In this document: positions 2,956 through 28,127 of the stretch, piece after piece
Layout of the letters: each line of letters begins with the position of its first letter
Numbering within the stretch: position 1 is the stretch's first letter
DNA from: Candidatus Sericytochromatia bacterium
GTDB taxonomy: Bacteria; Cyanobacteriota; Sericytochromatia; UBA7694; JACMQJ01
Direction: 5' to 3'
Assembly (NCBI GenBank): GCA_014377055.1
Contig: JACMQJ010000183.1
Location: 1-29,593 of the forward strand
Length of the DNA: 29,593 nucleotides
The notes under the pieces: model-generated
Database searches by the model: none
What the model saw: the letters and a program-made list of their open reading frames with translations, nothing else
Told to the model about the DNA's origin: nothing
Program-made: the position numbers and the translations under genes

Positions 2956-3789
2956 TTAGCTAAATTTGGTATTTAACTTATAGCCACAGTTACAATCAGC
3001 CACTATTTCATCTTTTGAATTAATAAGATACTCTAATGAACTAATACAGTTTGGGCATGTAATGTCATGACCTTTTCTTATTTTATGAACTAATTGAACT
3101 TCTTCCATTAAACTTAATCTTTTTATTGAGCTTACAGGAGCTAAAACAGCTCTTTTTACCATAACTGGTGACTTATTAGCATAAGCAAGTTTAGTTTTTC
3201 TTATCTTTTCTTTAAACAAATCTTTGGATTGCTTTTCTTTTTTGGTTACAGATTTAACATCAATATTACTTTCTCTATTTTGCTTAATTCTATCTCTATT
3301 TTGTTGATACCATTCTTTTTTGTAAGTTTTTATCTTATCTTTATTAGAATCAACATATTTTTTTACTTGTTCTCTAATTTTATCTTTATTTTTTTGATAA
3401 TACTTCCTTTTTTGATCTCTTAGTTTAGGTTTATTAGTTTCATAATAATCTTTTCTTTGCTCTCTAATCTTACCTTTATTTACTTCGTAGTAAGCTTTAC
3501 TTCTTTCTCTATTTTTGTCTTTATTAATTTGATACTGTGTTTTTTTGTAGTCCCTAATTTTATCTTTATTAGAATCTCTATAATCCTTCATATAATCTTT
3601 TATTTTATCTTTATTAGAATCACGGTACTTTTTTCTTTGTTCCTTGATCAAATCTTTATTCATTTCGCGATATTGCTTCATATAATCTTTTATTTTACTT
3701 TTGTTGACTACACGATATTCTTTAGCTTTTTCGCGTTTTTGAGTTTCTTCATAGTCATCAACTATAACAGTTTCTGTCAAATTATTCAT
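2956..3789 (-). CDS. Hypothetical protein: ~10 tandem 15-aa Lys/Tyr-rich helical repeats plus C-terminal Cys4 zinc ribbon
   Basis: Repeats NKDKIxxxxKxYxxx from residue 29 to about 168; C-terminal CPNC-x17-CNC; purine-rich agggtgg upstream of the ATG. Confidence 0.75.
   Translation of the reverse strand: MNNLTETVIVDDYEETQKREKAKEYRVVNKSKIKDYMKQYREMNKDLIKEQRKKYRDSNKDKIKDYMKDYRDSNKDKIRDYKKTQYQINKDKNRERSKAYYEVNKGKIREQRKDYYETNKPKLRDQKRKYYQKNKDKIREQVKKYVDSNKDKIKTYKKEWYQQNRDRIKQNRESNIDVKSVTKKEKQSKDLFKEKIRKTKLAYANKSPVMVKRAVLAPVSSIKRLSLMEEVQLVHKIRKGHDITCPNCISSLEYLINSKDEIVADCNCGYKLNTKFS
3285..3705 (-). repeat. Coding tandem repeat, 45-bp period, degenerate
   Basis: tttatctttattagaatc occurs exactly at 3559 and 3604 (45 bp apart); the protein shows nine consecutive 15-aa units beginning with NK, plus a tenth partial unit. 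Confidence 0.85.
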
Positions 3790-4060: not shown

Positions 4061-5134
4061 ATGACTAGATTTGAAATCATGAATAAGCTGCTTGATCAGA
4101 GTTTATTTTTTAAGCTTGTTTGTGGTGCAGGCAATGAAGACATAGAAGAAGTTAAAAAGCTAAGTATGCTTTATACTCTTGCAGGTGCAAAAGGTATGGA
4201 TGTTTCAGCAAATCCTAAAGTAGTTAATGCTTGTGTCCAAGGTATCGATCTTGCAATAAGTATGGAAGCTCAATTTAATATAAAAATTAGCGTTAGACCA
4301 TTTATAACTGTAAGCATTGGTATGCCAGGTGACCATCATGTCAGAAAAGCTGAGATAATGCTTGAAAATTGTATAAAGTGTAATTTATGTATACCAGTTT
4401 GCCCTACTGATGCAATACCAACTAATTTAATTGTTATAGAGTCAAAATGTATAGGATGTGGTAATTGTAGTGCTGTATGTCCTGTCAATGTAATTGATTA
4501 CTATCACAATGAAAAGAATTTATTACAAATTTTACCTGAATGCCTAAAAGCAGGAGCAGAACAAATTGAATTACACGCTGCAATTAAAGAAGATGAATAT
4601 ATTATGAAGGAATGGGAAATAGTTAATTCTATTAATCCAAATGCTCATGTTTCAATGTGTCTTGATCGATTACATCTATCTGATTTTGCACTTGAATCAA
4701 GGATTAAAAAAGCTAAAGAGATTTCAGGTGATAGATTAATTATTCAAGCTGACGGTTATCCAATGAGTGGTGGTGAAGATGATTTTAATACTACCTTGCA
4801 AGCAATATCTACCACTGATGTCATTAACAAAAGATTCAATAAAAAACTCAATAGAAAAACAGGGAAAAGTAATTACAAGAAAATTAATCATATAAACATT
4901 TTGATGTCTGGTGGTACTAACTCTCTGTCAACTAATTTAGCAAAACAAAATGATGTCAGATTTCAAGGCGTTTCGATTGGTACTTTTGCTCGTAAAATAA
5001 TCAAAGAATACATTGAGATAGAAGATTTTTATAATAATATTGATAACATAAAAAAAGCTTATTTAATAGCCCGACAATTAGTTATAGATAATGTTGGAGA
5101 TGTTAATCTAGTGACAAAGGACTTTTTAAATTAA
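4061..5134 (+). CDS. ldpA: LdpA-like iron-sulfur protein (two 4Fe-4S ferredoxin motifs plus LdpA C-terminal TIM-barrel-like domain)
   Basis: N-terminal FKLVCGAG...LYTLAGA...DVSA as recalled for cyanobacterial LdpA; CIKCNLCIPVCP and CIGCGNCSAVCP; IELH, QADGYPMSG, SGGTN in the C-terminal part. Confidence 0.8.
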   Translation: MTRFEIMNKLLDQSLFFKLVCGAGNEDIEEVKKLSMLYTLAGAKGMDVSANPKVVNACVQGIDLAISMEAQFNIKISVRPFITVSIGMPGDHHVRKAEIMLENCIKCNLCIPVCPTDAIPTNLIVIESKCIGCGNCSAVCPVNVIDYYHNEKNLLQILPECLKAGAEQIELHAAIKEDEYIMKEWEIVNSINPNAHVSMCLDRLHLSDFALESRIKKAKEISGDRLIIQADGYPMSGGEDDFNTTLQAISTTDVINKRFNKKLNRKTGKSNYKKINHINILMSGGTNSLSTNLAKQNDVRFQGVSIGTFARKIIKEYIEIEDFYNNIDNIKKAYLIARQLVIDNVGDVNLVTKDFLN

Positions 5135-8812: not shown

Positions 8813-10105
8813 TTATTTTTTCTCAGTATATTTTCTTAGAAACTCAATAATAGCTGCTGATTCACTTTTAGTGATAAGCTTTCTAGTTTTATACCTTGAT
8901 ACAATAGGTTCCCATTCATCGCCTGTATGAACATCTGGACTGATCAATATATGACATTTTGAACAATTATTGATATATAAAGTTCTTCCCTTATCAACAG
9001 TGTTCAAAGTTTCATTTTTTTCTAAGTCCTCAGCATCTATTTTTTTTAATAATAGCAAACTAAATATTTTTGGATATTCAAAATTACCCTTATAGGTTAG
9101 ACCTGCTTGTATCCCATAATAATTATCTATATTATTTCCTAAAATTGGTTTGTCAAACGCAAGATTAACATCAAAATTAGAAAATTTATATCCTAAATTT
9201 GGTCTAACAGATAAATAATTAGAGCTTTGAGCATTTCCATCATTAACAGTTGAATATCCATATAAGCTAATATCAAAATCAAACATAACTTTATATGAAA
9301 AAAGCTTTAAATTGAGTGGTTCAAGGATGTTGTTCTTACCCAAATCAAAAATATAATTTATTTGAGAAGAAAAGTTAGTATTAGTAATTGTTTTATCTGC
9401 ATTTGCAGTACTTAAAGAAAATCTATATTTGTAACCGATACCAGCTTGAGCATACAAAGAATCAAAATTATAAAGCTCAAATGGTTTGGTAGCTAGTAAC
9501 ATAATTCCTAAATCGGGTTGATTCTCTCCTACTGTAGATATTTTTAAAGTATCAGCTATAATTGAGCCAGGTGCTTTAGCATCAATTTGAACTGACAAAA
9601 TTACAGGTTTATCAATAATCTTAAATTTAAAATCAAACCATGGATTGGGTATGCTTGCAGGCTGACCAAAATTATATCTATAGGGGATATTAGCAAAAAA
9701 AGAAAGATTATCAATTATTCCCCATCCAAAACTTAAGTTAGGTTGGATAAATGAATAATTATGTTCATTAACTACTAGTAAACCATTACTATCAAAACTG
9801 CCATAAGCAAAATCTGTACTAAGTCCCAATCTAGCAAAAACTTCATTTCCCTTGAGGGTTGCCGCACCAGTAAATAAATTTGATGAGCCTCCTTGTTGAA
9901 TTTTTGGATAGTAGTTAAGATTATAAGCATCTTCTCTTGCTTTAGTTTCAATTACCTTTGTTTTTTTATTGAATTCTATTTCATCATCTGTTAAATCGTC
10001 AGCAAGCGAGGGATTATAATTTGAGCTAGATAATAAAAAAAATATTAGCATCGCTATACTCGTATTTTGATACTTTTTATTCTTATATCTTTTCTTTTTT
10101 GTCAA
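8813..10105 (-). CDS. Putative outer-membrane beta-barrel protein with C-terminal c-type cytochrome domain
   Basis: Signal-peptide-like N-terminus ending SLA-DD; many alternating amphipathic aromatic strands (FGWGIIDNLSFFANIPY, YAQAGIGYKYRF, VRPNLGYKF, YGIQAGLTY); C-terminal GRTLYINNCSKCH...P...EW heme motif at 8951-8965. Confidence 0.65.
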   Translation of the reverse strand: MTKKKRYKNKKYQNTSIAMLIFFLLSSSNYNPSLADDLTDDEIEFNKKTKVIETKAREDAYNLNYYPKIQQGGSSNLFTGAATLKGNEVFARLGLSTDFAYGSFDSNGLLVVNEHNYSFIQPNLSFGWGIIDNLSFFANIPYRYNFGQPASIPNPWFDFKFKIIDKPVILSVQIDAKAPGSIIADTLKISTVGENQPDLGIMLLATKPFELYNFDSLYAQAGIGYKYRFSLSTANADKTITNTNFSSQINYIFDLGKNNILEPLNLKLFSYKVMFDFDISLYGYSTVNDGNAQSSNYLSVRPNLGYKFSNFDVNLAFDKPILGNNIDNYYGIQAGLTYKGNFEYPKIFSLLLLKKIDAEDLEKNETLNTVDKGRTLYINNCSKCHILISPDVHTGDEWEPIVSRYKTRKLITKSESAAIIEFLRKYTEKK

Positions 10106-12941: not shown

Positions 12942-13736
12942 ATGGAAAACGACGATAATAAAGTTGATAATTTAGAAAATTCTTTTTTAATTTATAATCA
13001 CGAATCTCAAACGCTTAAAGGTTTTGATTATTTTATCGCTTGGATCAAAAACTTTCCTATAACAGCATTATGTATTTTTATTTCGATTGTTTTGTATATA
13101 TTAGTCAGTTATTCTACTTATTTTGAATTTAAAAGTTATCCTCAAGAAAATGCCAGAGAATATTTAGCATATATTAAGTATGGTGCTGTACTAGGTGGTC
13201 CATCTCAAGAATTACTATCACAGGGACAATTATGGCGATTACTAGTAAATGTCTTTCATCACGGTGGATTTATACATATTTTCTTTAATCTAACTGCCAT
13301 GTATGTTATTGGTGCTTACGCAGAAAAATATATGGGTAGCATAGCTTACTTAATTTTTATTTTACTTTGTGGTATGGGTCAAGAAATTGCTTGCCAACTA
13401 ACTATAGAGCAAGGAGCAATAGGTATATCAGGAGTTGCATTTGGTATTTTTGGTATTTTGATGATTATCAAAAACCAAGATGCAAATATCAAAAAATTTA
13501 TGACAAAAGAGTTAATCAGGTCAATGATTTTTCAATTAATTTTATTCATGTTTTTAACTTATTTTAATATTCTTAATATTGCTAATGTTGGACATATTTT
13601 TGGCTTATTTTATGGTTTCTTTTTTGCTTTCACATTTTATAAGTCACCGAGTTTAATAAAAAAAATATTTTTTGTGCTAGTAAATTTATCAATTATTCCA
13701 GGATTATATTATATTTACAATAATGTTATAAATTAA
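12942..13736 (+). CDS. Rhomboid family intramembrane serine protease
   Basis: GQLWRL (WR motif), HIFFN, catalytic GISG, ANVGHIFG (catalytic His), multiple transmembrane segments. Confidence 0.9.
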   Translation: MENDDNKVDNLENSFLIYNHESQTLKGFDYFIAWIKNFPITALCIFISIVLYILVSYSTYFEFKSYPQENAREYLAYIKYGAVLGGPSQELLSQGQLWRLLVNVFHHGGFIHIFFNLTAMYVIGAYAEKYMGSIAYLIFILLCGMGQEIACQLTIEQGAIGISGVAFGIFGILMIIKNQDANIKKFMTKELIRSMIFQLILFMFLTYFNILNIANVGHIFGLFYGFFFAFTFYKSPSLIKKIFFVLVNLSIIPGLYYIYNNVIN

Positions 13737-14029
13737 TCTATCAGTTTTAAAACGTCTGCAATGTTGTCGTAATCATAAATATTATCTCTCGCATTATCTA
13801 TTTTTTCTATATCATTACAGTTATCTATTTTATTCTCAATATCACTATTTATTTTACCAAATTTCTTGGTTAATAGATTTTTAAGTCTTTGTTTTACATT
13901 CTCTAACGTTATTTTATCTGCTTCAATTTTTCCTTCAAGCTTGCCCTCAATTTTTCCTTCAAGCTTGCCTTCAATTTTACCTTTATTTACTAGCTCTTCT
14001 TTCTCTTTTCGGATAGCAGTTAAAAACAT
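13733..14029 (-). CDS. Predicted internally initiated small C-terminal Rpn product (RpnS-type intragenic antitoxin), 98 aa
   Basis: In-frame ATG at 14029 (MFLTAIRK...) preceded by GAGGT (14041-14037) with a 7-nt spacer; the product contains the 4-aa repeat helix. Confidence 0.55.
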   Translation of the reverse strand: MFLTAIRKEKEELVNKGKIEGKLEGKIEGKLEGKIEADKITLENVKQRLKNLLTKKFGKINSDIENKIDNCNDIEKIDNARDNIYDYDNIADVLKLID

Positions 14030-14758
14030 TGAGTTAACCTCTTCTTTGGTCTTATATAATTTTTCAAGTTCCTTATAATCAATTATATCAACTTTTTCAT
14101 TTATTGACATTTGCTTAAAATAATTCAGAAATAACTTTAAAGGTGTTGTTATTCCTTGATTGTCTAATATTTTTTGCACTTCTTGATGAATTATTCCTAG
14201 CTCATAATCTACTTCCATTATAAAAAGTGTTGAAACTATATTTCCTATTTTTAATAATTCCTGTAATGAATATGTGTTTTCTTTAAGTAAAAAAATATCA
14301 AAGTTAATACCATAATTTGCTAGTATATGATTATTTTTTATAAAATCAGATACTTTATTAGAATGATTCCATTTATCATCTCCATTGTACAAAACTAATG
14401 GAAAAATAGGAGGAAGTGAAATATCAGTTCCTTTTTCTTTGATCAAATCTAAATACATATTTGTTATATAATTTAAGCATCTGACAGGCATAAATTTATC
14501 TACAGATGATTGAAATTCTAATAAAATATAAATATATATCTCTGTATCATCAACTAATTTAACTTTATAGATTACATCTGACTCTGTCTTTTCATACTTA
14601 TCTGAAATAAAAGTTTTATCGACTCTCTCTGATTTACTAAAATCGATATTTTGCACCCAATCCAATTTTACAAAAGATTGTATCAGTTCTCTAAATATTT
14701 CATGATTAGAAAATAGCTGCTTGTAAGCCCTGTCATATATTTGGTATATCTTATCCAC
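13733..14758 (-). CDS. Rpn family recombination-promoting nuclease / putative transposase (PD-(D/E)XK), long form
   Basis: YDRAYKQLFS start region, ESDVIY and YILLEFQSSVD nuclease motifs, PLVLYNG, EGKI/EGKL 4-aa repeats, LTKKFG C-terminal domain. The track start at 14815 overlaps the upstream gene; GTG at 14758 is more likely. Confidence 0.88.
   Translation of the reverse strand: MDKIYQIYDRAYKQLFSNHEIFRELIQSFVKLDWVQNIDFSKSERVDKTFISDKYEKTESDVIYKVKLVDDTEIYIYILLEFQSSVDKFMPVRCLNYITNMYLDLIKEKGTDISLPPIFPLVLYNGDDKWNHSNKVSDFIKNNHILANYGINFDIFLLKENTYSLQELLKIGNIVSTLFIMEVDYELGIIHQEVQKILDNQGITTPLKLFLNYFKQMSINEKVDIIDYKELEKLYKTKEEVNSMFLTAIRKEKEELVNKGKIEGKLEGKIEGKLEGKIEADKITLENVKQRLKNLLTKKFGKINSDIENKIDNCNDIEKIDNARDNIYDYDNIADVLKLID
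13923..13983. repeat. 24-bp tandem repeat x2.5 encoding EGKLEGKI units in Rpn
   Basis: tcaatttttccttcaagcttgcc(c/t) at 13923 and 13947, partial third copy at 13971. Confidence 0.9.
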
Positions 14759-14781
14759 TTGATTTATTTCAACTTTTATAA

Positions 14782-17700
14782 TTATTTTCGTTCTATAGGT
14801 AATTGATATTGCCAAACAACTTCTGAGTTTTTATTAACTTCAATAATTTGCTTATTTGAGCTATGAACAATTACAGTATTGCCGTTGTCAAGCCTAGTTA
14901 CATTACTAGGGCTACTAAGTTGTCTAGCAGAATTACCCACTTTATAATTCATAAATTCCCAAATAATACGATTAGCATCATTAATCTCAATAACACGATT
15001 ATTTCGAGCATCAGCTATTAAAGTTGTATTATCAGAGGTTCTAGTTGCTTTTTCTGGATACATAAGCTGATTTGATTTATTACCTGATGAGCGATCTGTT
15101 CCATATTTCCAAAGTATATTTCCTTGCATATCAACTTCAATAACAGTATGATTACTCCAATCAGTTATAAGAGTATTATTATTAATAAGTCTTTCTGCAT
15201 AATAAGGAGCATTAAGAAGATTATTACCACCTTCCCAGCCACCATAAGTCCAAAGTATTTCTTTTTGTAGATTTACCTCAATCACCCTAGAACTGTATTG
15301 ATCAGTGATTAAAACATTATTATCTGGAGTTTGAACTGCTGACCTTGGATGTCCTAACTGATTATTGCCACTACCCATTGCTCCACTAATACCGTAAGTC
15401 CAAACAATTTCTTTAGTTGGTCTATATATTTTAATTACCCTATGATTGTCAGTATCAGCAACATAGACATATTCATCTTTAATTAGCTCTACATATTGAG
15501 GTCTTTCAAGATAATTTTCACTACTTTCTGACGACTCACCAAAACGCCATATAATATTTTTATAGCGATTAACAATCGAAATTTTGTGATTAGCTCGATC
15601 AACCAGAGCAACTTCAATTTCAGTTAAATTACTCATATTTTTTACATAATTACTAGTTGCTTGTCTTGCCTTTTCATGAGTCTTAGTTGTCATTCTATCA
15701 TTAATTATTTTATCTTCTTCTTGTGATATAGTTTCTTCTTTAAATTCTGGAGATTTGGCTAAGTATTCTATTTGTCTGATATATATTAGTTGTCCTTGTG
15801 CTCCTACCTCTATAACCTGCTCAGGACTTATAATTACAGTATGACCTGTTTTTAATCTATAAGCTTTGAGGGCATTAATATTTATTGGACAACCTTGATC
15901 CATACTTGTGGCAAAATGCCATGTAACTTGCTTATCCTGATTTACTTCGATAATTCTGTTATTACCAGTATCAACAACCAAAGTATTACCATTGTCTAAC
16001 TTATAAGCAAACATTGGTGAATTAAGCTGATCTTTGGCTGAACCGTAGCCACTACCAAGCCTATTTTTACTATTACCATATTGCCAAAATATTTCATCAT
16101 TTTCATCAATTTCTATAATTCGATGATTATCTGTATCTGTAATTAAGGTATGACCATTACTTAGTCTTTGTATATAACTAGGGCTATAAAGTTTTTTATC
16201 TGTCGCTCCAACTGTTGCTGTTGTACCGTATTGCCAAACTATTTTATCAAGATGATTTACTTCAAATACTCGATGATTACCTTGATCGGCAATTAATGTA
16301 TTACCATTAAGTAAACGTATTGCTTGCACAGGTCTTCTTAAGAATAAATCTCTAAATCCTTCTCTATTTTTTAGTTCCCAATATATACGACCTGACTTGG
16401 TAAACTCAATAATTCGATCTCCCTCAGAATCAGATATTAAGGTTGTTCCACTTCTTAAACGCATTGCACTGTATGGATGTATCAAATCATTGTTGTTTTT
16501 ATTGGCTATTTGCCAAACAATTTGACCACCCTCATTTGTTTCTAAGACACGATTACCCAATGTATCAGGTATCAATAAATGTCCTTCATTAAGATTAGCC
16601 AAAGGGCTTGGAGAAGCTGGAGATCTGACATCCTCATTCTGAGATTTGTGATCATTTTCTCTTGAACATTTAGAACAGATCTCAATCTCTGCTGGAATGC
16701 TTACACCACATTTTTCACAAATTGATTCGGTTGACTTTTCTTTTACAGGCTCATCATCAACAGGAGGAGCATTATATACTTGCTGATTATTGTTAGCTGG
16801 GGCTGATACATTAGTTTGAGTTTGTTTTTTTTGAGCTATTTCGCTTAATGTTTTTAACATAACGACTAATTTTTCTTGATTAACAACTATTTCTAAGGAA
16901 AAATCGCCGACAAGATTTTCAATTTTAATAAAAGCATAGTCTTTGTCTAATATCTCATCTTTAGCTCTGGTAATTAAAGAGTGATATTTAAAAATATCTG
17001 CTCTTGGTACTTCTATGCCCCAAATACTATGAAAATCTTCAACGCAAATAGCCATAATAGCTTCTTCTAGCATAGTTGGATCAAGTGTTTTAAGTTTTTC
17101 TCTAACTGCTTGCCTAACATCCGATGGAATATTAGCAGACATATTTGGTGGTAACTCTGTTCTTGCTCTAGGTACATTGACAGGTAAGGCTTTCAGCTCT
17201 GCCTTATTTGTATGTTTTACCATTTCTTTATTTTCTGGTTTAGCCAAATTTTGAGCTTGAACTTGCTCTTTATGATGTTGACTTAAATCTTGTTGATTTT
17301 GTTCTGATTCGCTTTGTCTAGATATAATTGAGTCATATTTTTCTTTGATCACTTTATAAAATTCTTTCATAAAACGATTAAATTCAGCCATAGTAAAATC
17401 CACTAATACCACATCAAGATCAGGAAACTTTTGCTCTATTATTTCTTTAAGCTTCTTTTTATTGGCAGGATTAGCTATGGCTAAAGTTAATTTACCATCA
17501 ATTTTATTAATCGGTAAAAAGGCAAAATATCTCATCTGGTCTTCTTTAAAAGCGAGTAATAAAGAGGGATCTAGCTCAAATTGATATAATATAGGATATT
17601 TTTGTGCTGATGTCAAAGTTTGCTCTTCATCATCATCCATTTCTTTTTCTAGTAAACCAAAGCCTTCTTCATTTTCTAAAGGTTCTTGAATTATATTTTG

Positions 17701-18939
17701 TACTTCTGGAATATAATCATCTTGAATACCATTTATTTTGTCCAAAGCTGCCAAAACATGTTCTTCATTGATATAACCTAATTCGATTAAAATATCAATT
17801 AAACCAGATTTTAATTTAACTAGTTCTTCTGGCTTTTGCATGGCAAAAGATATATAGGTAGGTTTACCTGTATCATTCAAAAATATTTGATCCACTAATT
17901 GAAAAGAATTTAGATCTATGACGTTAACAATAGGTGTGAATAATGCAGGATAATTGACAAATGTCATAACCAATAAATATTTACCAGATGGAGATAGTAC
18001 CATTAAATCAGTAGGATCATCTATTTTACTAAACAATTCTCCTTTAAGTTGAATATTAGCCCTTAAAATTAAATTTTGGGTATCCAAAACTAACAATTCA
18101 GGAGGATTATTACCTTTATCTACCAAAATATATAACCATTGATCGTCAGATATAAGATTACAAAGATTACCATAAGATAGAGGTTGTTTTTTTATTTTAA
18201 GCGTTTTAGCTTCAATAATAAACATACCTGGAGTTTCATTGTCAGTAACAAATATTTTTTTACCATCATTGGTTGATGATACGTTAAGAGTTCTTTTGTT
18301 ACCAGCAGGTCTTAAATGTACTGCACCAGACAATTTATTGGTTTCTGTGTCAAAAATATATAATATGCCAGCACCACGATCTACAAAATAAAGATTCTTT
18401 TTATTATTGGTAACAGTTAAATCAATTGGAAGTGTAACAATAGCTTCTGATGGTGTTGATTCATAATGTAGTTTGGAGAGTACAGGAAAATAAAAACTAT
18501 CATCTGTACTTTTCATTTGCAAATAACTAAAATTCTTTCCAATAGTCAATCCTATTTGATCATTAGGATTCCAATTTAATTCTCCTACTTCTTGGCAATC
18601 ATCATTAGAAAAAATAGCAACACTGTTAACAGCAATAGGAAACCAGTCTGTAGAATTAAACTCAGGTTTATTTTTTTTCCTAATAGGAAAGCTAACTTCG
18701 GTTATTAATTCATCTGTTATAGGATTTTTGATATATAAACAATAATTTTTTTGATCAACATAATAAGATAAAAGTTCAAGCTTTTGTTTGCCTTCTGAAA
18801 TATATTTTTTTTGTATTTCTATTGCTTTTTGTATATGTTCGGGTCTTATTACACCATTTTCAAGTAAAACCTGTTGTATTAATTCTTGTTGGAAATGAAT
18901 ACTGATATTTTTTTGCTGCACGTTTGTATTATAACTCAT
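14782..18939 (-). CDS. Large multidomain cytoplasmic protein: MshEN-like motif, YncE-like beta-propeller, GspE/PilB N-terminal (T2SSE_N) domain, zinc ribbon, two 6-bladed NHL-like beta-propellers
   Basis: QQVLLENGVIRPEHIQKAIEIQ and LIDILIELGYINEEHVLAAL motifs; FLPINKIDGKLTLAIANP (GspE-N-like); CEKC-x10-CSKC; 12 repeats of GxTLIxDxxNxRVIEVxxxxxIxW. No signal peptide or Walker A motif seen. Confidence 0.75.
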   Translation of the reverse strand: MSYNTNVQQKNISIHFQQELIQQVLLENGVIRPEHIQKAIEIQKKYISEGKQKLELLSYYVDQKNYCLYIKNPITDELITEVSFPIRKKNKPEFNSTDWFPIAVNSVAIFSNDDCQEVGELNWNPNDQIGLTIGKNFSYLQMKSTDDSFYFPVLSKLHYESTPSEAIVTLPIDLTVTNNKKNLYFVDRGAGILYIFDTETNKLSGAVHLRPAGNKRTLNVSSTNDGKKIFVTDNETPGMFIIEAKTLKIKKQPLSYGNLCNLISDDQWLYILVDKGNNPPELLVLDTQNLILRANIQLKGELFSKIDDPTDLMVLSPSGKYLLVMTFVNYPALFTPIVNVIDLNSFQLVDQIFLNDTGKPTYISFAMQKPEELVKLKSGLIDILIELGYINEEHVLAALDKINGIQDDYIPEVQNIIQEPLENEEGFGLLEKEMDDDEEQTLTSAQKYPILYQFELDPSLLLAFKEDQMRYFAFLPINKIDGKLTLAIANPANKKKLKEIIEQKFPDLDVVLVDFTMAEFNRFMKEFYKVIKEKYDSIISRQSESEQNQQDLSQHHKEQVQAQNLAKPENKEMVKHTNKAELKALPVNVPRARTELPPNMSANIPSDVRQAVREKLKTLDPTMLEEAIMAICVEDFHSIWGIEVPRADIFKYHSLITRAKDEILDKDYAFIKIENLVGDFSLEIVVNQEKLVVMLKTLSEIAQKKQTQTNVSAPANNNQQVYNAPPVDDEPVKEKSTESICEKCGVSIPAEIEICSKCSRENDHKSQNEDVRSPASPSPLANLNEGHLLIPDTLGNRVLETNEGGQIVWQIANKNNNDLIHPYSAMRLRSGTTLISDSEGDRIIEFTKSGRIYWELKNREGFRDLFLRRPVQAIRLLNGNTLIADQGNHRVFEVNHLDKIVWQYGTTATVGATDKKLYSPSYIQRLSNGHTLITDTDNHRIIEIDENDEIFWQYGNSKNRLGSGYGSAKDQLNSPMFAYKLDNGNTLVVDTGNNRIIEVNQDKQVTWHFATSMDQGCPININALKAYRLKTGHTVIISPEQVIEVGAQGQLIYIRQIEYLAKSPEFKEETISQEEDKIINDRMTTKTHEKARQATSNYVKNMSNLTEIEVALVDRANHKISIVNRYKNIIWRFGESSESSENYLERPQYVELIKDEYVYVADTDNHRVIKIYRPTKEIVWTYGISGAMGSGNNQLGHPRSAVQTPDNNVLITDQYSSRVIEVNLQKEILWTYGGWEGGNNLLNAPYYAERLINNNTLITDWSNHTVIEVDMQGNILWKYGTDRSSGNKSNQLMYPEKATRTSDNTTLIADARNNRVIEINDANRIIWEFMNYKVGNSARQLSSPSNVTRLDNGNTVIVHSSNKQIIEVNKNSEVVWQYQLPIERK

Positions 18940-19112: not shown

Positions 19113-20711
19113 TTAAGTTATTTTATCTGTTTTATTGTTGCCATAAGTAATGTGTGGATCTTCAGTGCTAAACCTTAATACTTGTGAACCCGTACTATTG
19201 GTTGGTATGACTGTTTCAACCTTAATATTATTTTTACCAGATGGTAGCGATAATCGTTTTAATAAATTTGGCGAATCAACTCTTTGGTTAACAACATTTA
19301 CATAAATTGGCTCTTGGTTATTAACTGAGATTTTGACAGTTCCTGTAAAGCTAGTACTTGGAAAACTGCCAGATTTTGACTTAACGGGGGTATAAGCTCT
19401 ACTATCAGTTTTAGTATCTTGACTTGGAGTTCCTAAAGATATACAAAAATCTTGTTTAGAAGAAGTTGTATTATTAACCACAGTATTAACAACATATTTT
19501 GTATTATAATTTCCATAAGCTACATTGTTAACATTAGCTTCTTTACCATCTCTAACCAATGTAGCCTGTACATTTACAGCATCAGAATGTTTATTAAAAG
19601 AATAACTTTGAGCAAATTTATTTCCATCCAGAGTTATTTCAGGGATAGAAGATTCTATTTCACTTTTTTCTTTAATAGAGTTAACACGACCCAATGCTAG
19701 TTGTCCATCTGGCTGAACGCCACTTTTTGCTCTTTCACCTATTACAAAGCTATGATTTTTTAAAAAAGGAACAGAATTGTAGGCACTATTATTAAAACCA
19801 ATAACTCCATTGCTAGTTGTTGGTTGATTAGTAAGATTATTCATATCGCTTTCTTTTAATATTGCAGCTTCTAGTTTTAAGCCCTTATCCTTAAAGTCAG
19901 GGTTGTCATTTCCAGATACAACTTTAAAATTGTATTCAGATCTTGCATTGGTTTGATCTGGCTTAGCCTCAAGTTTTGTATAAACCATTGCAGACTCACC
20001 AGGTTTTATGGTTATTGTCTTATTAATTAAGTTATTATTACTTACACTATCTGATGCTAGTTTCATATCAGCAACTCTTGTACTTTCATAATATCCTTTA
20101 GCATTTTTAAATTCGGGCTGATTATCGATCCAAGCCTTATCTTTTTTATCAAACTTATTAGCTATTTGTTGAGAATTATTGTATCCTGAACCTTTAATTT
20201 CAACTTCTATAGGCTTATTACTAGGATTAGTTATAATAACTGATTGGTATATGGGCTTGTTATAACCTTGATTGCTCTTAATTTTTTTGACATCTGAATA
20301 AGAATAAAATTTAAATTCTGTATTTTTGTCAACTCCAAGTTTAGGTTTTTCGGTAAAGCTACCTTTTTCTTTGAGATTATCTGTACTAAAAAGTAATCCA
20401 TTAGATTGTGGTTGCTCAGGATCATCAACTTCTATTGAGATACTACCTTTATGCTTTAGATTAGGTAAATCTTCTATTGTATCAGAAGATACATTGTTAC
20501 TTATGATATTATTCTCATGAAAATTTAAAGGTAATGTTGGTAAGATACTTTTGCTACTTATTTTTGCACTACTGTTATTTTTGTAAATATCTTTAGAAGG
20601 TGCAACAACCTTTTCTTCTGTTAAAATTAAGCTTTTATATAGTCCTTTTTTAGGCTCAGGTTTATCAATACTGCTTAAAACAAGAGATTTATGGCTAGAA
20701 GTAGGATCCAT
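19113..20711 (-). CDS. DUF3370-like protein with low-complexity N-terminal extension
   Basis: DDPEQPQSNGLLFST and AYGNYNTKY...N...TP...FTGTVKI...VVNQR...IPTNSTGSQVLRFST resemble motifs I recall for cyanobacterial DUF3370 (NSPE...GILLST; AHGNYGVxY; FRGTVR; QxRG; YPPDATPPQVLT). The track start is 20762; ATG 20711 is preferred. Confidence 0.6.
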   Translation of the reverse strand: MDPTSSHKSLVLSSIDKPEPKKGLYKSLILTEEKVVAPSKDIYKNNSSAKISSKSILPTLPLNFHENNIISNNVSSDTIEDLPNLKHKGSISIEVDDPEQPQSNGLLFSTDNLKEKGSFTEKPKLGVDKNTEFKFYSYSDVKKIKSNQGYNKPIYQSVIITNPSNKPIEVEIKGSGYNNSQQIANKFDKKDKAWIDNQPEFKNAKGYYESTRVADMKLASDSVSNNNLINKTITIKPGESAMVYTKLEAKPDQTNARSEYNFKVVSGNDNPDFKDKGLKLEAAILKESDMNNLTNQPTTSNGVIGFNNSAYNSVPFLKNHSFVIGERAKSGVQPDGQLALGRVNSIKEKSEIESSIPEITLDGNKFAQSYSFNKHSDAVNVQATLVRDGKEANVNNVAYGNYNTKYVVNTVVNNTTSSKQDFCISLGTPSQDTKTDSRAYTPVKSKSGSFPSTSFTGTVKISVNNQEPIYVNVVNQRVDSPNLLKRLSLPSGKNNIKVETVIPTNSTGSQVLRFSTEDPHITYGNNKTDKIT

Positions 20712-20883
20712 TAAATATACCAAACTAATATAATTAAAATTATTATATGATAAACCTATCAAATCTTGTCTAATTATTTAAATAAATTATATAACAGTAC
20801 TTAATTCTTTTAATTCTCTCTTTCTAATTCATAGGGTAAAATGTAAGTATATAAATTAAAAATTATTGATTAAGGAGTATATT

Positions 20884-26826: not shown

Positions 26827-28029
26827 TTAGTCATCTATTATTGAAGATTTTAATCTTTTTTTAAATTCAGCCACTGGCATGCTATCTAATGTTCCAGATT
26901 GAGTATTTTGAAAATAAACATCTTTATCATCAACTTTTTGAATAACAACATAATGGAGATCCACAACTCGATCAGCGCTATAAAGAGCTATTGGTTGCTT
27001 ACCTGTATTAGCAGCTTCTTTCATTTTATCAAAAGCGTTCCAAACTTTATTTGATACACTTTTACCCATTATACTTTCAGATAATGATGTAAGTAAAACT
27101 GGATTAGCCGCAGAGTCACCACTTCTAACAGATTTACTATCGCCATTATCATTATTAACGTTATAGTCAGCTAAATCATGTATATAAGCATTGCCAAAAG
27201 CTCTGTCACCACCAATTAAAGCAACATTTCTCATTACAGCAGACTGAAAAATAATATTAAAATCTTTTCTATTTTCACTAGATCCACCAGTCATAGTACT
27301 TCCAGAATGCCAATTAAGAGAACCTGTTCCAGCTTTTAATTTTGTTCCGTCTCTCAATGTTGCCTCACCATTTTTAGCCAAGTCTTTGGTTATTCTAACT
27401 AATTCAGCAGGATCTTTACTCCACAAATGGTTTTGTAATGCCCCAGCTCCACAAGTACCATGTTGACCCTGAGTAATATTATTTCTATCATTTAAAATAC
27501 TAATAGTTTCTTCTGCTAACTGTTTTCCATTTACTCCTGGTTTGTTAGGGCCTTGTATCATATCGGAAATATTTTCCATTACTCTTCTAGGTGTAGAGTC
27601 TAGCATGGTTAGTTTTCCAGAGTTTAGCAAAGATATTAGCTCACTTTTATTACTAACATTATTAAGTAAAAAAGAAAATTTTTCTCTTAGTTGAGGATTC
27701 ATTTGATTTATTTTTTTTACAGAGTTTTCATCTCCACCATTACTTAAAACTTGCATATCAATTTCTAAGTTCTTTGTGGCATTAGCTGAGGGTTCATTAA
27801 ACTGTATAGAGATAGGGCTTTGATTGCTTGTAGAAGATTTTAGCTGAGTAACATTTGACTGATCCATTAGTCCTATCAAAAAAGCTTTTTCATCTTTACT
27901 TAGGTTATTTTTTTCAGCTGTTTTAATTAATGCTGTTAGATCTTTTGCATCTATGTTCCCATCTTTGGCTCTACTAATAGCTTCTTTAAGAAGACCTGAA
28001 CCTAGATTACCTGTATTAATATTAACCAC
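26827..28029 (-). CDS. Hypothetical protein with C-terminal papain-like cysteine protease domain
   Basis: ITQGQHGTCGAGALQ (oxyanion Gln and Cys), LHYVVI (His) and YFQN (Asn) 16 residues later. GTG 28029 has a GGAG RBS 8 nt upstream (track start 28068). Confidence 0.6.
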   Translation of the reverse strand: MVNINTGNLGSGLLKEAISRAKDGNIDAKDLTALIKTAEKNNLSKDEKAFLIGLMDQSNVTQLKSSTSNQSPISIQFNEPSANATKNLEIDMQVLSNGGDENSVKKINQMNPQLREKFSFLLNNVSNKSELISLLNSGKLTMLDSTPRRVMENISDMIQGPNKPGVNGKQLAEETISILNDRNNITQGQHGTCGAGALQNHLWSKDPAELVRITKDLAKNGEATLRDGTKLKAGTGSLNWHSGSTMTGGSSENRKDFNIIFQSAVMRNVALIGGDRAFGNAYIHDLADYNVNNDNGDSKSVRSGDSAANPVLLTSLSESIMGKSVSNKVWNAFDKMKEAANTGKQPIALYSADRVVDLHYVVIQKVDDKDVYFQNTQSGTLDSMPVAEFKKRLKSSIIDD

Positions 28030-28127
28030 TTGACAAACTCCAATCAAAAATTTAGAGATAAAAACCATAATAGTCTTATATATTTATTTTACAAAATATT
28101 TCTCAACTTAATATGTTATTAATATAA

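Follow-up and report, generated by a model that had tools for sequence, protein, structure and literature searches.

A cytoplasmic, ATPase-less protein family of Sericytochromatia with a putative propeller-split MshEN domain and an Hsp70 IIB-like module

MshEN (GSPII) domains are among the most widespread cyclic di-GMP (c-di-GMP) receptor and motor-docking domains. An initial annotation of the DNA studied here stated that they normally head ATPases, which is true for PilB, GspE and MshE but incomplete, as fusions to REC, HD-GYP, CheA, CheX, cyclase, kinase and glycosyltransferase domains are also known (PMC5013675); E. coli NfrB is an example among the glycosyltransferases (PMC8669469). The guanines of c-di-GMP are bound through the motif arginine, a leucine cluster and two backbone amides, those of the motif glycine and of the residue after it (PMC5013675), and c-di-GMP-binding domains start each motif with the relaxed pattern [RKPN]-h-G (Wang et al. 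2016, PMC5013675). G11I is the most damaging mutation in MshE, and XpsE has lost binding via G11V, R38G, G40L, Q61V and other changes (eight loss-of-binding positions overall); a continuous helix α1 clashes with the ligand (PMC5013675). In PilF, small deviations from the motif and a lengthened α1 prevent the GSPII-A domain from binding (PMC12002112). We analyzed an open reading frame (ORF) of 1385 amino acids (aa) from a Candidatus Sericytochromatia bacterium, in which such a domain appears to be split by a β-propeller and is not followed by an ATPase. The ORF lies within positions 1–29,593 of contig JACMQJ010000183.1 (assembly GCA_014377055.1); this whole stretch, AT-rich with a GC content of ∼0.28 throughout, is called the window.

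Domains were assigned from curated hidden Markov models (HMMs), profile searches and confident AlphaFold2 (AF2) models. The model of aa 1–600, built on 38 orthologs, had a mean predicted local distance difference test score (pLDDT) of 78.8, and that of aa 600–1385 a mean pLDDT of 82.6. Foldseek results for both models were dominated by the propellers and bear on the propeller folds only. The start methionine is the same as in the orthologs. A sequence scan of the protein revealed no Walker A motif, transmembrane segment or signal peptide; the N-terminus is not hydrophobic, and the 19-residue stretch with the highest hydrophobicity falls within a propeller strand. Since the T2SSE ATPase core (PF00437) had no Pfam match in the protein either, it is not an ATPase of the PilB/GspE/MshE type. 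The protein as a whole is acidic (isoelectric point of 5.4, net charge of −35). Overall, it is a cytoplasmic, ATPase-less member of a paralogous family specific to Sericytochromatia, the core of which consists of a helix hairpin, a YVTN-type propeller, a second helix hairpin and then two NHL propellers. The features are as follows (positions in the window; nt, nucleotides):

14782–18939 (−), whole ORF, 1385 aa, ATG start; cytoplasmic by sequence, full-length orthologs at 37–71% identity
18778–18894 (−), helix hairpin 1 (aa 16–54) with the MshEN_N-type half-motif I (aa 20–43, nt 18811–18882)
17836–18771 (−), YVTN/YncE-like β-propeller between the half-motifs (aa 57–368), about seven blades; 27 strands in the AF2 model, block pLDDT mostly >90
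17716–17829 (−), helix hairpin 2 (aa 371–408) with half-motif II (aa 378–401, nt 17737–17808)
17611–17715 (−), acidic disordered linker (aa 409–443), pLDDT <50 over aa 406–439, length variable among orthologs
17335–17610 (−), MshEN_C/T2SSE_N1-like α/β domain (aa 444–535, Pfam PF05157), leading into a long helix in the AF2 model
17125–17307 (−), low-complexity linker rich in Q, E, N and K (aa 545–605) after the long helix, predicted to be disordered
16819–17124 (−), orphan module resembling subdomain IIB of the Hsp70/DnaK nucleotide-binding domain (aa 606–707), from profile, Pfam, hhalign and AF2
16645–16728 (−), CxxC-x10-CxxC zinc ribbon (aa 738–765; C741-x2-C744-x10-C755-x2-C758), weak Pfam Zn-ribbon matches
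15769–16578 (−), first six-bladed NHL propeller (aa 788–1057), from Pfam, AF2 and structure match
15631–15723 (−), helical linker between the NHL propellers (aa 1073–1103), from AF2
14800–15615 (−), second six-bladed NHL propeller (aa 1109–1380), from Pfam, AF2 and structure match; repeated D-x-x-N-H-R-V

All features that the initial annotation had listed are real, and each of its coordinate ranges falls on the feature it names: two degenerate MshEN half-motifs around a YncE-like propeller; a GspE/PilB-N-like middle domain, which HMM matching identified as the expected type; a linker described there as Gln/Pro-rich and here as Q/E/N/K-rich; the four cysteines; 12 NHL-like blades forming two propellers; no signal peptide or Walker motif; and no Arg-Leu-Gly in either motif copy. 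What it had missed are the Hsp70 IIB-like domain at aa 606–707, the apparent dispensability of the ribbon and the large paralogous family.

Half-motif I fits the consensus RLGxxLLxxGLIxxxxLxxxLxxQ except for the arginine, replaced by Leu20, and the glycine, replaced by Gln22; positions 6–7, 10–12, 17, 21 and 24, including the leucine cluster and the glutamine, are kept. The NCBIfam model c-di-GMP_motif scored 24 bits on it, under the cut-off of 38. A profile of half-motif I from 36 family members was searched against 177,635 PDB sequences and matched only GSPII/MshEN_N motifs, namely those of PilF (E-values of 2.4e-15 for the full Thermus protein and 9e-5 for its isolated c-di-GMP-binding domain), PilB (8e-4) and MshE (0.22). 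Half-motif II deviates from the 24-residue MshEN motif by Arg to Gly, Gly to Ile and final Gln to Ile changes. The AF2 model has helices at aa 5–27 and 33–54 for hairpin 1 (block pLDDT of 82–85 over aa 21–50) and at aa 371–376, 380–387 and 392–408 for hairpin 2. The two half-motifs are 334 residues apart, whereas the usual MshEN_N spacer has 5 residues, and they are thus not consecutive. The alignments of the two hairpins were concatenated, and the resulting chimeric profile was searched against all 9,004 ORFs of the same genome. It aligned contiguously over both halves to four targets, i.e. the N-terminus of a GspE-like ATPase (C203, E = 3e-6), PilB (C124, E = 4e-3) and small tandem-MshEN_N proteins. 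Because of the matches of the half-motif I profile and these contiguous alignments, the two hairpins of this orthogroup are assigned as the two 24-residue halves of one MshEN_N (GSPII) four-helix domain, in which the propeller replaces the 5-residue spacer. Helical prediction, sequence and the usual adjacency of the first and last strands of a propeller suggest that both hairpins pack into one four-helix bundle.

The inserted propeller (aa 57–368) was matched by Foldseek to the archaeal YVTN seven-blade propeller 1l0q (E = 2e-15), NirN/NirF, BtuG and E. coli YncE (3vgz/7seu). The YncE equivalog model NF052280 gave 30.1 bits against a cut-off of 400, so that the likeness to YncE is at the level of the fold only.

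The MshEN_C/N1 assignment is based on Pfam and on a search of the same genome, as the PDB gave only a weak match of the segment profile to PilB (E = 0.58). Pfam MshEN (PF05157) matched aa 453–528 above its gathering cut-off of 23.1 bits, scoring 25.9 for the full-length sequence and 31.6 when the segment was excised, and it matched all 26 aligned orthologs (best E = 1e-10). In its own genome the segment profile found only the protein itself and PilB aa 68–146 (E = 7e-8), with which the domain shares the signatures 'h-x-P-h ... L-x-h-A-h-x-[DN]-P' and 'EF/DF-x-RF'. Searches of the PDB with aa 370–620 and aa 600–780 as single sequences yielded nothing significant.

Compared with the MshE, PilB, PilF and GspE ATPases, both 24-residue hairpin motifs and MshEN_C (N1) remain recognizable by HMM or profile, with PilB as the closest protein in the genome. 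In contrast to these ATPases, the motifs lie 334 residues apart around a propeller, the arginine and glycine of RLG are substituted, MshEN_C is followed by neither an N2 nor an ATPase domain, and the gene is located outside a pil/gsp operon. In the other MshEN fusions, MshEN likewise serves as a regulatory module that can be detached from secretion ATPases; however, none of those covered by PMC5013675 has a propeller partner or an insertion inside MshEN_N, and they keep the c-di-GMP motif. We regard the protein as a variant among MshEN-domain proteins and not as a new kind of system.

The module at aa 606–707 was identified with a profile of aa 608–722 from 26 orthologs. Its best match in the PDB was 8d1p (chain aa 243–326, E = 8e-8), and E. 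coli DnaK in 1dkg was matched at aa 228–314 (E = 1e-5); 123 distinct PDB sequences were found, and all 60 of those listed belong to the Hsp70 family. Within the genome, the profile found only two paralogs and DnaK aa 227–283 (E = 5.6e-7), and hhalign against aa 225–316 of this DnaK gave a probability of 95% (E = 3.6e-8, 88 columns, ∼18% identity). Pfam HSP70 (PF00012) was matched individually by 15 of the 26 orthologous segments (best E = 3e-8), but only at profile positions ∼228–301 of 599, which is IIB and not a complete Hsp70. In the AF2 model, aa 606–707 have a pLDDT of ∼90 and show helices, a β-hairpin and a helix in the order of IIB. Pairwise BLAST of the segment against the DnaK of the genome was not significant, and the homology is seen at the profile level only. 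The ∼88 aligned columns span the whole of IIB; unlike in Hsp70, nothing resembling the lobes IA, IB and IIA flanks the domain, and the substrate-binding domain is absent. From these profile matches aa 606–707 are assigned as an orphan Hsp70 IIB lobe. We found no described precedent for such a lobe outside Hsp70.

Both C-terminal propellers are six-bladed: Pfam NHL (PF01436) scored 33.9 bits (cut-off of 20), and the AF2 model shows two groups of ∼23–24 strands. Superposition on the NHL domains of TRIM71, Lin41 and TRIM2 gave template modeling (TM) scores of 0.75–0.79 at a root-mean-square deviation of ∼3 Å. The D-x-x-N-H-R-V repeats correspond to the signature common to NHL blades in general. 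The folds match those of YncE, the archaeal YVTN seven-bladed and the TRIM-NHL six-bladed propellers, but unlike YncE and the S-layer YVTN protein, both of which are extracytoplasmic, the present protein lacks a secretion signal, and its net charge is acidic; RING, B-box and coiled coil had no Pfam match N-terminal to the NHL propellers, so it is not a TRIM-NHL protein. The zinc ribbon between the IIB-like module and the NHL propellers was modeled with low confidence (pLDDT of 42–68); it is missing from about half of the aligned orthologs and would be dispensable.

Sericytochromatia are non-photosynthetic relatives of cyanobacteria, of which, to our knowledge, there is no cultured representative. 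Full-length orthologs were found in metagenome-assembled genomes labelled Candidatus Sericytochromatia, Blackallbacteria or Obscuribacterales. The architecture is real and conserved, and it is uncharacterized, since every named relative is annotated as hypothetical or as 'PQQ-like beta-propeller repeat protein', in line with the remark in the initial annotation that the architecture was not recognized from any described system. Segment HMMs divided the best 120 relatives into three architectures: (i) the full form as in the 1385-aa protein; (ii) proteins of 1130–1230 aa with MshEN_C and without IIB; and (iii) proteins of 1190–1270 aa with IIB and without MshEN_C. The number of paralogs and the taxonomic range, checks proposed in the initial annotation, were established as follows. 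The N-terminal 720 residues were matched in 44 of the 47 genomes of the same class (GTDB representatives), and full-length orthologs came from only two families, both of the same order, with up to ∼13 paralogs per genome; in the genome of the window (3.9 Mb, 87% complete), the 1385-aa protein is accompanied by at least three paralogs. In the rest of the phylum, none of the 254 sampled genomes matched at E = 1e-12. When 185,579 species genomes were scanned for a pattern, 16 loci were found, 14 of them titled Sericytochromatia or Blackallbacteria and two with generic cyanobacterial titles only (UBA7694, 'Cyanobacteriota bacterium'). The orthologs thus occur only in Sericytochromatia. Conservation over the whole length at 37–71% identity across two families argues for a selected function.

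Several further observations concern the family. Three paralogs stand in tandem within ∼12 kb of a related genome (G045:C76:19597-31631), and two more pairs were found, at G001:C581 and G038:C59; this arrangement suggests that the family has expanded through local duplications. Relatives also encode stand-alone proteins of 400–490 aa (L025-L034; genomes G001, G030, G035, G036, G038, G040-G042 and G046) in which a helical N-terminus and a C-terminal helix hairpin flank a YVTN-type propeller. This hairpin-propeller-hairpin arrangement is the family's minimal unit; L030 and L031 additionally carry a conserved tail, '...SKTNGVFVLNW...', after their C-terminal helices. A precomputed label of CheA P2 (PF07194) on some paralogs was not reproduced, and a third docking module of borrowed origin was no longer considered. 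Near-identical sequences of 14782–18939 were present in contigs of several independent metagenome runs from glacier, ice and sediment, and the organism appears to be a cold-environment lineage of Sericytochromatia.

With a probability of roughly one half, we propose that the protein is a non-enzymatic cytoplasmic docking scaffold. Hairpins 1 and 2 would close into one bundle that clasps the inserted propeller, and the split bundle would no longer bind c-di-GMP. Without catalytic activity of its own, the protein would act as a large platform: cytoplasmic partners would be bound through MshEN and IIB, both of them borrowed modules, and client proteins or ligands would sit on the faces of the three propellers. 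For MshEN_C, a pilus platform of the PilM/PilC type would be the most obvious candidate partner, and for IIB it would be GrpE/DnaK. The genome encodes, elsewhere, pilB-pilT-pilC, PilM, several PilT paralogs and a single grpE-dnaK operon, so that candidate partners exist. We give lower probabilities to remaining ligand binding, to binding of nucleic acids, to catalysis and to GrpE mimicry. Several points weigh against the scaffold. The partner candidates are suggested by domain homology, and the packing into one bundle by sequence and the usual closeness of propeller termini. Propellers can be catalytic, and the lack of a recognizable active site is weak evidence for a non-enzymatic role. The hydrophobic motif positions 2, 6, 7, 10–12, 17 and 21 are kept, and some ligand binding is thus possible. 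Only DNA runs from glacier, ice and sediment contained the sequence, and no RNA runs with it were found. Finally, gene neighborhoods were compared on long contigs and in the window itself, and no shared neighbors, including pilus, secretion or chaperone genes, were found among four orthologous and three paralogous loci.

At present the architecture is well defined and the scaffold function an inference. The family indicates that the four-helix half of MshEN may tolerate or exploit a propeller of 310 residues exactly between its two repeats, and that MshEN may persist over long evolutionary times without its ligand-contact residues and without an ATPase; in addition, it offers an Hsp70 IIB lobe that apparently lives outside Hsp70. 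If partners were found, they would open up lineage-specific cell biology of Sericytochromatia and provide a natural test case for the recycling of docking modules.

The proposal that the protein is a scaffold or decoy docking on type IV pilus or type II secretion machinery was already made in the initial annotation; what speaks for it is domain homology. In this scenario the ATPase-less MshEN would take the site of the PilB N-terminus on PilM/PilC or a GspL-like protein, whereby docking of the motor would be regulated or the propellers tethered at the base of the pilus. It is one instance of the docking scaffold and seems to us rather unlikely. The sole non-self match of MshEN_C in the genome is PilB aa 68–146, MshEN_C carries PilB signatures, the genome has the pilus genes named above, and the N1 domain of GspE is the GspL-binding module (PMC5013675). 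However, there is no linkage to pil or gsp genes at any of the seven loci, MshEN is also present in many non-secretion proteins (PMC5013675), and many paralogs without MshEN_C keep the rest, which implies that the core function of the family does not need this domain. A further reading is a new class of cytoplasmic adaptors assembled from docking modules of core machines, one being the pilus motor's N-terminus and the other the Hsp70 lobe to which exchange factors bind; the split, ligand-blind MshEN would compete with PilB for the pilus platform, and IIB and the propellers would recruit chaperone or client proteins. We consider this reading improbable; if true, Sericytochromatia could regulate or exploit the base of the type IV pilus independently of a motor.

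The protein could, in principle, still be a receptor of nucleotides or second messengers, c-di-GMP or another ligand on the split bundle re-orienting the inserted propeller versus the rest of the protein. Consistent with this, half-motif I has kept its leucine cluster and glutamine among the positions given above, mutation of Arg9 alone in MshE changes the affinity less than fivefold (PMC5013675), and the genome has 10 GGDEF genes. A shorter class of paralogs (class 2) retains 'LLG' and 'D(I/L)G', which suggests stepwise decay from a functional ancestor. Against a receptor, the arginine and the glycine of RLG are replaced in both half-motifs in all 26 aligned orthologs; the motif starts of the 1385-aa protein read L-I-Q and G-L-I, and the glycine changes (to Gln22 and to Ile) are equivalent to G11I, the most damaging change in MshE. 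The relaxed [RKPN]hG motif was found by regular expression in neither hairpin of any ortholog or paralog examined, whereas the same expression finds canonical RLG in PilB and several small tandem-MshEN_N proteins of the genome; none of the 400–490 aa hairpin-propeller-hairpin proteins of the relatives keeps canonical RLG. The equivalents of Gly11, Arg38, Gly40 and Gln61 are substituted, which are four of the eight loss-of-binding positions of XpsE. Hairpin 2 has a net charge of −6 and no basic patch, and AF2 predicts α1 of hairpin 1 to be continuous, as in the helix that clashes with c-di-GMP in XpsE and GSPII-A. The protein resembles the XpsE N-domain and PilF GSPII-A in these respects; unlike theirs, which are contiguous and head ATPases, the domain here is split and the ATPase is gone. 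Because the RLG arginine and glycine are replaced in both halves, α1 is predicted to be continuous and the region is acidic, c-di-GMP binding has probably been lost in the split MshEN, as in XpsE and GSPII-A, and the receptor is unlikely. The GGDEF genes indicate that c-di-GMP signaling exists, but probably via other receptors. The genome also encodes small proteins (80–250 aa) that consist only of tandem 24-residue MshEN_N motifs (G000; C610:483-1046(-), C13:4817-5422(+), C295:1422-1661(+) and C133:10720-11472(-)). Their motifs start with canonical RLG, KLG or PIG and, together with the GGDEF genes, this makes them likely stand-alone c-di-GMP receptors.

Nucleic-acid binding, in which the YncE-like and TRIM-NHL-like propellers and the zinc ribbon would hold single-stranded DNA or RNA, seems very doubtful to us. 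The structural neighbors include the YncE–DNA complex 3vh0 and Lin41/TRIM71 NHL–RNA complexes, and relatives carry the JGI label 'DNA-binding beta-propeller fold protein YncE'; these matches are, however, at the fold level only, the ribbon is lost in many orthologs, and the domain charges do not support the idea, each propeller being neutral to acidic in the orthologs in addition to the acidic whole (isoelectric point of 5.4, net charge of −35). There is still less to recommend an enzyme with one or more catalytic propellers (lactonase, arylsulfotransferase, PAL or ScyF-like) and regulatory N-terminal modules. Partial matches to Pfam Arylsulfotran_2 (E = 2e-10) and NCBIfam ScyF (E = 5e-19) exist, but ScyF reached 68.7 bits against a cut-off of 350, the other match consists of single-blade repeats (profile positions 267–299 of 301), the conserved D-x-x-N-H-R-V is the generic blade motif, and no metal or active-site constellation was identified in the propellers.

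GrpE binding needs contacts with lobe I of Hsp70 as well. Least probable of all is a chaperone link in which the IIB module would mimic the nucleotide-exchange-factor-binding lobe of DnaK and recruit or sequester GrpE: the homology is significant at the profile level, the PDB matches include the DnaK–GrpE complex 1dkg and an Hsp70 lobe II fragment bound to HspBP1 (1xqs), and the genome has a single grpE-dnaK operon, but the module has retained neither the GGxDFD signature nor other residues specific to Hsp70 (18% identity), the lobe I contacts that GrpE requires are missing, and none of the seven loci or the window links the gene to chaperone genes.

The neighbors of the gene in the window are unrelated to it, with thioredoxin, rhomboid and CorA genes nearby. 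At 19113–20762 (−), 173 nt upstream on the same strand, a 549-aa DUF3370 protein is encoded, a cyanobacteria-associated family that is not found next to the orthologs. Directly downstream, at 13733–14815 (−), lies a Transposase_31/Rpn (YhgA-like) gene; in its longest frame, which begins with TTG, it reaches 34 nt into the 3′ end of the 1385-aa ORF, and its real start is therefore probably internal. A Transposase_31 (Rpn-family) gene is also present ∼4 kb from the ortholog in L021. Three ORFs of 277–430 aa, at 8813–10105 (−), 2956–3789 (−) and 26827–28068 (−), had no Pfam match at E = 1e-3. The ORF at 4061–5134 (+) encodes an LdpA-like 2×[4Fe-4S] protein (matches to LdpA_Fe-S-bd and LdpA_C), here in a non-photosynthetic relative of cyanobacteria.

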